Assembly (NCBI GenBank): GCA_026999335.1
Contig: JALTPW010000176.1
Coordinates: 1 to 34,686 of the forward strand
DNA: 34,686 nucleotides
Origin: Chromatiales bacterium
GTDB taxonomy: Bacteria > Pseudomonadota > Gammaproteobacteria > SZUA-152
Reading direction: 5' to 3'
In this document: piece by piece, positions 22,097-23,279 of the stretch
Layout of the letters: each line of letters starts with the position of its first letter
Numbering within the stretch: the stretch's first letter is position 1
Program-made: the position numbers and the translations under genes
The notes under the pieces: generated by a model
What the model was told of the DNA's origin: nothing
The model's database searches: none
What the model saw: only the letters and a program-made list of their open reading frames with translations

Positions 22097-22485
22097 GAAA
22101 GCACCTCCTCGAGCCCAGTTTCAGGCCCCTGCCACCCAGCCGGCTTGACAACATCCAACGTAGTGCCTCGCTTAGAGTCGTCGGATGACTGCGCGCGCTC
22201 CTTTGACATGTTCGCGCGGTGGACGTGTAGCATGCCCAAGTCCCACTGTATTGGGGATACGCCCATGAACAAAGCAGTTCCGTAGGTCACGTAAGCGAGA
22301 TCGAGCAACGCGTCGAAGGCCCGCACGCGATCGCCTTTGTCCAGCGCCTCGCGCAGCTCGTCAAGCTCCTCTTGCAAGAACCTCACACGGAACTCAATCG
22401 CCTCAGAATTCCTGGTGAGCTCGTCACGTTCACCGTTCGGCAGGCCAAACTTTTCGTTGAACTCTCGTACCTTGTAGATACTCAT
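22075..22485 (-). CDS. MazG/PRA-PH-like NTP pyrophosphohydrolase (candidate dCTPase)
   Basis: LQEELDEL..DALLDLAYVTYG..VHRANMSK..VVKPAGW. Confidence 0.85.
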   Translation of the reverse strand: MSIYKVREFNEKFGLPNGERDELTRNSEAIEFRVRFLQEELDELREALDKGDRVRAFDALLDLAYVTYGTALFMGVSPIQWDLGMLHVHRANMSKERAQSSDDSKRGTTLDVVKPAGWQGPETGLEEVLSWTQADD

Positions 22486-23279
22486 TTTGCTGCCCTCCTT
22501 TTAGTGCGGCGTTTCCGCCGAGTTGAAATAGGTTTTCTACAAACCCACAAGTTATTCCGTGCGTGGTCCGGGTACAACGGGCCAAAAATATTGCTCAGCG
22601 CATCGTTGTCATAGTACTCGCGCAACGCCTCTGCCACCTCGGCCACGGCTTCGCGGGAGCACCCACGAGGTTTCCCCTTGCCGATGTGCTTGATGTCCAT
22701 AAACGTACCAAACCGCCGTTCAACTGTAAACCCCTCGGCCTCAACGAGAGTACGGAGCTCCTCGACGGTATACTCGTGGATGTGGTTAGCCGCGTGACGA
22801 CGGCCGTCATAAACAGGCGTGGACATCAGCATTGTGCCACCGGGGCGCAAACAATTGTATGCTGCGCGCAGTAGATTCTTGCCGTGCTTTACCGCCATGT
22901 GCTCAATTACTTCGAGGTGCACCACTACATCGAAGTGGCCGTGCGCGTCGAGCAGTTCCGTGTAACGTGAGGTGAAGTCGAACTCGCCGTAGAAAGTCAA
23001 CCGTTGACTTTTGGACGGTTTCAACTTGTTCAGGTCGACGCCGACGTATTCGCTGACATGTGCGGCGGCGCCGCCTGTCAAAATCTTGCTCAATGGCTTC
23101 TCCTCGCCGCACCCTATTTCAAGGACCTTATCCTTGGCTGTGATATACCGCCGCGCGAAGGACCAACGGAAAAAGTGGGCAGTATAATCGCGGTGTAACG
23201 TCCGCCCGTGCGAGGTTGACTTGAGCTGTGTTGTGTCGAAATCACCCTTGTCCCGTTTCAACTTACGCGTTTTCGGCAT
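22482..23279 (-). CDS. Class I SAM-dependent methyltransferase
   Basis: VLEIGCG, YVGVDL, FDVVVHLEVIEH, LRPGG..MSTP, HIHEY; ATG 23279 with GGAG RBS; ATGA overlap with the MazG-like gene. Confidence 0.85.
   Translation of the reverse strand: MPKTRKLKRDKGDFDTTQLKSTSHGRTLHRDYTAHFFRWSFARRYITAKDKVLEIGCGEEKPLSKILTGGAAAHVSEYVGVDLNKLKPSKSQRLTFYGEFDFTSRYTELLDAHGHFDVVVHLEVIEHMAVKHGKNLLRAAYNCLRPGGTMLMSTPVYDGRRHAANHIHEYTVEELRTLVEAEGFTVERRFGTFMDIKHIGKGKPRGCSREAVAEVAEALREYYDNDALSNIFGPLYPDHARNNLWVCRKPISTRRKRRTKRRAAK

Follow-up and report, generated by a model that had tools for sequence, protein, structure and literature searches.

Introduction

Phages are known to tailor 5-hydroxymethylcytosine (5hmC) in their DNA with sugars and, according to recent work, with carbamoyl. 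In the T4 pathway the alpha- and beta-glucosyltransferases come last, after a dCTPase, a dCMP hydroxymethylase and a deoxynucleoside monophosphate (dNMP) kinase, and they act on the 5-CH2OH group in DNA. Here we describe a gene that appears to take the same place in the 34,686-base contig JALTPW010000176.1 (the window, meaning the whole stretch of DNA analyzed; 52.4% G+C), which belongs to a 4.36-Mb, 1068-contig assembly filed as a Chromatiales bacterium and looks like the genome of a P22-like podophage of about 35 kb that was binned with a bacterial genome. The gene lies at 22482..23279 on the minus strand and encodes a class I S-adenosylmethionine (SAM) methyltransferase (hereafter MT), which has a fold unrelated to that of the T4 glucosyltransferases and would transfer methyl from SAM, where they transfer glucose from UDP-glucose. 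The 5hmC carbamoyltransferase and the other phage enzymes that tailor 5hmC or 5-hydroxymethyluracil, as reported in PMC8670742 and PMC11472151, likewise differ from the MT in enzyme family and in the group transferred. We put at roughly 40% the probability that the MT adds a methyl group to the 5-hydroxymethyl oxygen of 5hmC, most likely when the base is already in DNA, to give 5-methoxymethylcytosine, and we infer both the substrate and the methylated atom from the evidence set out below.

Three described methyltransferases provide the main comparisons. Hen1/HENMT1 (PDB 3htx, 4xcx, 5wy0, 3jwg) resembles the MT in its class I fold, its four metal ligands and its STP and (D/N)H..E(W/Y)T motifs, and it acts on a hydroxyl of nucleic acid, which is the chemistry that we propose for the MT. 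In HENMT1, the residues Glu132, Glu135, His136 and His181 (Glu796, Glu799, His800 and His860 in plant HEN1) are reported to hold the Mg2+ that binds the substrate hydroxyls, and the two short helices with the ligands are described as not conserved in other RNA or DNA methyltransferases (PMC10781085). Unlike Hen1, the MT has neither RNA-binding domains nor a Pnkp partner, and its context and fusions are those of DNA cytosine modification. UbiG/Coq3 has motif I and the E..EH segment in common with the MT, but its alignment ends at about position 161, short of the NHxHEYT motif of the MT, and its substrate is a phenolic lipid of a cellular pathway, unlike the setting of the MT. Finally, CmoM (E. 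coli SmtA; tRNA mcmo5U methyltransferase, PDB 4htf/8joz) O-methylates a pyrimidine C5 side chain within nucleic acid, although the group methylated is a carboxylate and not an alcohol, the substrate is tRNA, and the match is a near-tie with unrelated class I methyltransferases at 16–17% identity.

The Encoded Protein Is a Class I Methyltransferase With the Hen1 Residue Tetrad

The gene and its translation signal are as follows.

22482..23279, minus strand: Hen1-like class I SAM methyltransferase (P0001, 265 aa), from the translation, Pfam, an alignment and an AlphaFold (AF2) model
23287..23290, minus strand: GGAG ribosome-binding site, 7 nt upstream of the MT ATG at 23279, read from the sequence

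The open reading frame (ORF) runs on the minus strand from the ATG at 23279 to a stop at 22482. Every motif quoted for it in the initial annotation is present in the 265-aa translation: LEIGCG at residues 53–58, GVD at 80–82, EVIEH at 123–127, STP at 153–155 and HIHEY at 166–170. The plus strand reads TCAT at 22482–22485, that is, ATGA on the coding strand, and we confirmed in this way that the stop codon of the MT and the start codon of the MazG-like pyrophosphatase gene overlap. The protein begins with the basic stretch KTRKLKR at its N-terminus and ends with RRKRRTKRRAAK, its basic C-terminal tail being residues 250–265. Basic termini had been singled out in the initial annotation; both are indeed basic in this protein, and the C-terminal tail is common in the family, with a net charge of at least +3 in 63% of 165 stand-alone members and a length of at least 12 aa in 38%, whereas the N-terminus is not a family trait, its net charge having a median of +1 in these members and reaching +3 or more in just 8%.

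Pfam assigned the protein to Methyltransf_23 (6e-16), Methyltransf_12 (8.5e-10) and Methyltransf_11 (1.4e-7), with weaker matches to Methyltransf_25 and Methyltransf_31. The earlier statement that it lacks DNA-methylase motifs held throughout. The dipeptide PP is absent from all 265 residues, hence there is no (D/N/S)PP(Y/F/W) catalytic motif, PPY and PPF included, and Pfam returned no match to the N6-adenine/N4-cytosine methylase families; for the C5-methylases, we found no PCQ or ENV motif and no match to PF00145. In an alignment of 79 sequences, G56, C57 and G58 of the glycine-rich motif I were nearly invariant and eight columns were invariant, namely D82, E123, E126, H127, P155, H166, E169 and G191, D82 being the acidic residue that closes beta-2 in class I enzymes and contacts the ribose of SAM. 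The family also has hallmarks of its own, an N-terminal HRDYxAHxFRW helix and a C-terminal YYxxxV...PLYPDxxRNN segment, both conserved. The MT is a class I SAM methyltransferase of the Methyltransf_11/12/23 kind and not a DNA amino- or C5-methylase.

When the family profile was searched against PDB sequences, UbiG came out on top (5.6e-12), along with a block of Hen1 entries made up of HENMT1 (8.5e-11), C. thermocellum Hen1 (1.2e-10), plant HEN1 (1.4e-10) and three more, and the Hen1 alignments extended farther along the MT domain than the UbiG alignments did. Against HENMT1, the family segments fEviEH, STP, NHihEyT and vGvDln were paired with IELIEH, STPN, DHKFEWT and VGVDIN, respectively. 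The Hen1 tetrad, a Glu-x-x-Glu-His after beta-4 and a His after beta-5, is present in the MT as E123, E126, H127 and H166, and we predict that these residues probably form a metal-binding, hydroxyl-activating site, the metal probably being Mg2+ or Mn2+. Judged by its sequences, the MT family keeps the catalytic core of a nucleic-acid hydroxyl O-methyltransferase and is not a Hen1 orthologue. The proposed likeness to UbiG is only part of the picture: UbiG is the best family-profile match, but Hen1/HENMT1 is the closer parallel, as the MT family keeps all four of its metal ligands without variation.

The conserved Hen1 ligands and flanking motifs would also suit a true Hen1-type RNA 2′-O-methyltransferase, acting at RNA 3′ ends, for instance those of repaired tRNAs, primers or phage transcripts, with the position of its gene in the cluster a matter of operon convenience. 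A weak match to the bacterial Hen1 model of NCBIfam (TIGR04074; E 1.6e-5, residues 50–203) points in this direction, as do the PHROGs label of the nearest MT family, “tRNA methyltransferase,” and the label “capping protein” that one record (MW202621) gives to a relative. The latter probably stems from single-sequence resemblance to a cap N7 methyltransferase, which the family profile did not support. The Hen1 match amounts to 23.6 bits against a model cut-off of 340 bits, and Pfam and PHROGs scans of the window ORFs revealed no Pnkp or RNA ligase domain. In addition, the MT stays by the kinase and the thymidylate synthase (TS) homologue across unrelated backbones, and its fusion partners are DNA enzymes and not RNA ones, as detailed in the following sections. 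We consider an RNA role of this kind improbable.

Structure searches were made with an AF2 model of the MT built from 79 family members (pLDDT 92.7). In VIA, CmoM ranked first (Z 19.5, root-mean-square deviation 3.9, 198 aligned) and HEN1 (3htx) reached Z 16.3, with Z of 16–19.5 to many class I methyltransferases over MT residues ~10–252, which make up the seven-stranded alpha/beta fold. The top rows of a Foldseek search of PDB were all class I methyltransferases, the highest TM being that of CmoM (0.59), and a search of BFVD returned one unannotated phage relative (TM 0.80).

With so generic a fold, the target of the MT might be unrelated to the phage base, for example a protein of the phage or its host, some small metabolite, or the N7 of guanine, which cap methyltransferases modify. 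The cap guanine-N7 methyltransferase Ecm1 (1ri1) was both the best single-sequence PDB match (2.6e-4) and the top Foldseek row (E 1.1e-10, TM 0.52), and a modified G would explain equally well the resistance of phage AXL3 DNA to restriction that is considered below. With the family profile, the cap enzyme reached 5.5e-5, well behind the Hen1 and UbiG matches, and in VIA the cap methyltransferases (Z 16.3–16.6) were level with unrelated ones. This explanation, which we regard as quite improbable, also sits badly with a family that is almost confined to phage-sized contigs, is persistently linked and translationally coupled to a cytosine pathway, and is fused to cytosine-directed DNA enzymes.

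The MT Family Is Linked to a Cytosine-Modification Cluster

In a 90%-clustered protein collection, 666 proteins matched the MT at E ≤ 1e-3, the best 120 of them at 64–77% identity and many on contigs of 35–60 kb; a 50%-clustered library gave 2258 matching representatives at the same threshold and 129 at E ≤ 1e-30. With this many homologues, far beyond what chance would give, the word “orphan” used in the initial annotation applies only in the sense that the MT has no restriction partner. Among GenBank phages we found five records, one phage being present twice: AXL3 (65% identity), PW916 (66%) and two uncultured phages (68% and 31%). The cultured carriers are thus Stenotrophomonas phage AXL3 and Pseudoxanthomonas phage PW916.

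A set with one genome per prokaryotic species yielded true MT relatives at eight loci. Six of these are on 34–54-kb contigs of metagenome-assembled genomes from unrelated lineages and look like binned phage contigs, one is on a 2.2-kb contig, and one belongs to a small integrative element on a contig of 635 kb. Another 21 matches in this set were partial, at 24–50% identity, and are presumably generic methyltransferases. On this evidence, the MT family is essentially phage-borne. The sole chromosomal member found (L179:7863-9701, plus strand) has the MT domain at the N-terminus of a 612-aa protein whose C-terminal half of ~360 aa is unassigned; the small element that holds it adjoins serS and also encodes an integrase, a resolvase and a D5_N/DUF3854 primase, and no TS homologue or kinase lies nearby.

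Downstream of the MT in the window, four genes follow in a tight or overlapping series, and a DNA polymerase gene lies in the same operon.

22075..22485, minus strand: MazG/PRA-PH-type nucleoside triphosphate pyrophosphohydrolase, 136 aa (Pfam PRA-PH 1.6e-11, phrog_671 3.7e-25)
21182..22096, minus strand: two-domain kinase-like protein, 304 aa (phrog_761 thymidylate kinase 4e-13)
20389..21210, minus strand: TS homologue with the dCMP-hydroxymethylase signature, 273 aa (Pfam Thymidylat_synt 9.4e-24)
19926..20441, minus strand: dCMP deaminase (Pfam dCMP_cyt_deam_1 2.6e-18, phrog_174 3.9e-37)
27836..29782, minus strand: family A DNA polymerase of the same co-directional operon (Pfam DNA_pol_A 1.8e-49)

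By analogy with T4 gp56, the MazG-like protein is presumably a dCTPase supplying the pathway with dCMP, and the 304-aa kinase-like protein is, again by analogy with T4, presumably the kinase for 5-hydroxymethyl-dCMP (5hmdCMP).

A TS homologue lies a few genes downstream of the MT in 71 of the 75 loci with close MT relatives, and the other four end within 0.6 kb of the MT; most of the 75 have the replication module of the window and do not count as independent observations. The loci found with a distant fused relative have one in 13 of 15 cases, the two without it in the DNA fetched being L077 and L084, which brings the total to 84 of 90 loci. The linkage recurs on several backbones, with SNF2 and PolA, with UvrD helicase and AEP primase (L081, L088, L086), with a DnaG-type primase (L083), and with dUTPase_2 and PolA (in L076 the order is dUTPase_2, MT, kinase, TS, deaminase, PolA). 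A podovirus whose MT is just 31% identical keeps the order MT, NTP-PPase, kinase, “pyrimidine hmase,” deaminase, and L089 has two MT paralogues (3836-4573 and 7716-8693) together with ThyX, a C5-methylase-like stretch, a kinase–uracil-DNA glycosylase (UDG) protein, TS and MazG. That the MT sits within a cytosine-modification cluster had been recognized at the outset, and we think it very probable that it is functionally part of the cytosine-modification pathway.

The Linked TS Homologue Is Predicted to Make 5hmdCMP

Residue rules in E. coli ThyA numbering have been reported in PMC13326640, by which N177D specifies dCMP as the substrate, L143D/E a product that is hydroxymethylated and not methylated (T4 and MilA being examples), and D169N the flavin-dependent 5-hydroxy-dCMP synthases. 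The TS homologue of the window reads KDVPC (Cys146, with Asp three residues before it, at the L143 position), RSSD (D169) and PYD (N177 position). The same four residues, the Cys and Asp at the positions of L143, D169 and N177, were found in 85 of 85 TS homologues (the 84 linked ones and that of the window), so that the co-occurrence with Asp-type TS homologues that the initial annotation proposed to check is borne out by the loci. Aligned with the CMP hydroxymethylase MilA, which reads IDVAC, the TS homologue has the same DV.C and D residues. The L143 equivalence rests on this alignment and is less certain than the other three, since HMMER placed a one-residue gap there, with Val at that position, against one bacterial TS.

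Because Asp stands at the L143 position and D169 is kept, the linked TS homologue would, under the PMC13326640 rules, make 5hmdCMP and not 5-methyl-dCMP (5mdCMP) or 5-hydroxy-dCMP. Of the three nucleotides initially suggested as substrates of the MT, this signature thus points to 5hmdCMP and gives no indication of 5mdCMP or 5-hydroxy-dCMP. A 5-hydroxycytosine base converted to 5-methoxycytosine, which would suit the UbiG likeness, was rejected in view of the Asp169 of all 85 TS homologues, none of which has the D169N mark. An XP12-like dCMP methylase, that is, a TS that makes 5-methylcytosine (5mC), was rejected as well on the evidence of a single residue, the L143 position being Asp and not a bulky hydrophobic.

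MT Domains Are Fused to Enzymes That Act on Cytosine C5 or Its Hydroxymethyl Group

Our fusion survey covered the top 150 representatives, of which 38 are at least 447 aa long; the 30 of at least 536 aa were scanned. A C5-cytosine DNA methylase domain (PF00145) was found in 25 of these 30 long relatives, with the MT at the C-terminus in 22 and at the N-terminus in 3. In three of the fusions (P0156, P0158, P0173) an intein with a LAGLIDADG endonuclease lies inside the C5-methylase domain. Among the five long relatives that lack PF00145, P0146 and P0204 have an N-terminal domain of ~350 aa, while P0126, P0184 and P0219 have N-terminal domains of ~250–350 aa with no Pfam match, which are further fusion partners of the MT.

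The ~350-aa domain of the P0146/P0204 type is fused to an MT in at least 9 clusters and occurs free in 17. One free member was modelled (pLDDT 91.5) and is a GT-B glycosyltransferase (GT), for which the best two of 48,161 chains were T4 beta-glucosyltransferase (Z 17.3, root-mean-square deviation 3.4, 282 aligned) and T4 alpha-glucosyltransferase (Z 16.9), other GT-B enzymes lying no more than 1 Z unit away. In Foldseek, T4 beta-glucosyltransferase again had the highest TM (0.57–0.58). Across 81 loci of this GT family, a TS homologue was in reach in 33, with the Asp motif detected by regular expression in 32 of them. The family usually occurs as two tandem paralogues ~7–8 kb from an Asp-type TS on large phage contigs (L093-L171; for example L144:7977-9209 and 9197-10231), an arrangement reminiscent of the T4 alpha/beta glucosyltransferases, and it accounts for 328 stretches in IMG/VR.

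Because both recurrent fusion partners work on the C5 of DNA cytosine or on its hydroxymethyl group, the MT may be expected to act on DNA too, which is also in line with its frequent basic C-terminal tail. We therefore favour action on DNA after replication over action on the free nucleotide.

The same fusions supply the case for the main rival, in which the MT methylates the modified cytosine at N4 or N3 whatever C5 bears, giving N4-methyl-5-hydroxymethylcytosine in the window phage and N4,5-dimethylcytosine in the methylase fusions. The C5 methylase, the 5hmC GT and the dCMP hydroxymethylase all act at C5 or on the group it bears, so an MT working elsewhere on the base would face no competition, and its fusion to C5-acting enzymes would be explained more simply; in L086 and L092, moreover, the MT lies beside a separate C5 methylase gene. 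We nevertheless regard N-methylation as unlikely, since the MT is without the (D/N/S)PP(Y/F) motif of DNA amino-methylases and its invariant Glu-Glu-His-His residues, which match the metal site of hydroxyl O-methyltransferases, fit this chemistry less well. N4,5-dimethylcytosine was not found in a phage context in the literature as far as it was accessible to our search. Furthermore, the loci with a C5 methylase fused or adjacent to the MT (L078, L086, L089, L090) also carry a hydroxymethylase-type TS homologue, so that a hydroxyl is available there. Their having both enzymes likewise led us to reject the idea that the C5 methylase substitutes for the TS homologue; L092 shows no TS homologue in the DNA fetched. 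No TET/JBP domain was found in the neighbourhoods scanned.

The fusions to a T4-like GT raise a further possibility, namely that the MT tailors a glycan by O-methylating a sugar on 5hmC, binding the sugar diol as Hen1 binds ribose. The metal site of Hen1 is well suited to a vicinal diol, structural and sequence searches with the MT returned the sugar O-methyltransferases RebM and AtmM among their matches, and a GT like the T4 alpha/beta-glucosyltransferases is fused or adjacent to the MT in L091 and L092 besides the fusion clusters counted above. However, no GT of the fused family was found in the window, its assembly or the 90 MT loci (other GT families were not searched exhaustively), and just 2 of the 81 GT loci contain an MT. 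Fused and free MT domains, being 40–50% identical with the same invariant residues, suggest a single substrate. Sugar O-methylation is in our view very improbable.

A Proposed Pathway to 5-Methoxymethylcytosine

The best explanation of these results is that the MT is the tailoring enzyme of a T4-style 5hmC pathway. In the first steps of this route, the MazG-like pyrophosphatase would convert dCTP to dCMP, the TS homologue would convert dCMP to 5hmdCMP, and the kinase, followed by host enzymes, would raise 5hmdCMP to the triphosphate, which the phage family A polymerase would incorporate to give 5hmC DNA. The MT would then bind SAM, its Hen1-type site (E123, E126, H127, H166) would activate the 5-CH2OH oxygen, and transfer of the methyl group to that oxygen would turn 5hmC into 5-methoxymethylcytosine. 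We infer each of these steps, and the metal dependence of the last, from the observed fold, motifs, ligand conservation, linkage and fusions. O-methylation of 5hmC is the most economical proposal because the pathway is predicted to yield a hydroxymethyl group, the Hen1 site is kept, relatives of the MT are fused to enzymes of DNA cytosine, and no other tailoring enzyme is in view, no GT of the fused family having been found in the window, its assembly or the 90 MT loci.

Restriction data from phage AXL3 are consistent with this. Of 37 restriction enzymes with sites in AXL3 DNA, only TasI and Tru1I are reported to have cut, both of which have A/T-only sites, while the DNA was left uncut by 35 of the 35 tested enzymes with G/C in their site; the authors inferred that the G/C bases carry a modification of unknown type (PMC7504290). 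The same paper records a separate ThyX, because of which the AXL3 TS homologue would be free for another job. The PW916 paper, in the text accessible to us, offers a gene list alone. Somewhat less probable than the enzymatic activity itself, and put forward tentatively, is the wider proposal that the AXL3/PW916 phage group replaces cytosine by 5-methoxymethylcytosine by means of a metal-dependent DNA O-methyltransferase that derives from Hen1 and has 5hmC as its substrate.

Several observations weigh against O-methylation of 5hmC. As regards the enzyme, UbiG stands slightly ahead of Hen1 in the family profile search, the score against the Hen1 model TIGR04074 is far below its cut-off, and that against the UbiG model TIGR01983 of NCBIfam is also low (33.4 bits against 102.95). 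The fold searches on the predicted model, near-tied across CmoM, UbiG, cap N7 methyltransferases and HEN1, point to no substrate class. As regards the chemistry, the Hen1 metal binds a vicinal diol and 5hmC has a single hydroxyl; a GT fused to the MT would compete for that same hydroxyl; and the C5-cytosine methylase, the commonest fusion partner, yields 5mC, which has no hydroxyl. The residue rules applied to the TS homologue are correlative in the source cited and do not come from this enzyme, and the loci L077 and L084 (MT family), L092 (GT-MT) and L179 (the chromosomal element) have no TS homologue in the DNA fetched. Lastly, our literature search found no precedent for 5-methoxymethylcytosine.

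Genomic Setting and Neighbouring Genes

We found no terminal overlap in the window. Its plus strand carries P22-like portal, coat, tail-accessory and ejection genes, and its minus strand a co-directional replication and nucleotide operon with a primase, the family A polymerase, a PD-(D/E)XK nuclease, an exonuclease, a VRR-NUC protein and an SNF2 helicase. Relatives also occur in metagenome-assembled genomes from unrelated phyla and are apparently mis-binned phage contigs; the AXL3 paper likewise reports best matches in a “Nitrospira” genome (PMC7504290).

In a profile search against PDB, the 304-aa kinase-like protein matched SPbeta YorR (3.1e-13), thymidylate kinases (~2e-4) and, over positions 181–252, type-4 UDG (0.0026), and its homologue in L089 matched the Pfam UDG family (5.6e-6). 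These similarities suggest an N-terminal P-loop dNMP-kinase-like domain and a C-terminal domain like the UDG fold, the UDG-superfamily matches being weak. The kinase–UDG fusion is full-length in distant phage lineages, and L078 encodes the UDG-like part in a gene of its own (226 aa). The dCMP deaminase ORF as listed begins with a GTG at 20441, an internal ATG ~45 nt downstream being the alternative start.

Directly upstream of the MT lie two small genes with no Pfam family (23263-23841 and 24305-24697, both on the minus strand), which are kept in place across the AXL3-like lineage at 24–66% and 25–54% identity, respectively. A domain shared by these two genes and the linkers of fused MT proteins, as seen by eye, had no BLASTP support and was dismissed. 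The replication operon also encodes a DnaJ-domain protein (31228-31557, minus strand), whose gene is present in AXL3 as well, and a SAP/HeH-domain protein (31762-32211, minus strand).

Discussion

In the literature that we searched, which did not extend to subscription-only papers, neither the MT family nor methoxymethyl- or N4,5-dimethylcytosine in phage DNA is described. A 2026 paper (PMC13229309), in the part accessible, merely lists “O-methyltransferases” among the domains near phage dioxygenases. In the MetaGPA study, Thymidylat_synt and PRA-PH are given as the most enriched Pfam domains on cytosine-modified contigs (PMC8670742, supplementary table 2), and Methyltransf_23 is reported there as not significantly enriched (27 vs 1436, corrected p = 1), a family too broad for this purpose.

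If our reading is right, phage 5hmC would be tailored by a new class of enzyme to give a new base: natural DNA bases would gain a methyl ether next to the sugar and carbamoyl forms, the MT reaction would be the first in which SAM serves to O-methylate a substituent of a DNA base, and the Hen1 catalytic core would have found a new use. The resistance of AXL3 DNA to all tested enzymes whose sites contain G/C would also be accounted for, and this is relevant to Stenotrophomonas phage therapy and to the evasion of host restriction. The prediction is directly testable because two cultured phages carry the MT. An enzyme that tags 5hmC specifically with methyl, if this proves to be its activity, could serve as a reagent to tell 5hmC from 5mC. 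The MT family is common in metaviromes, where one scan of IMG/VR gave 72 loci and the protein clusters number in the hundreds, and its repeated fusions to C5 methylases and T4-like GTs point to a wider, unexplored range of combined cytosine modifications in phages.

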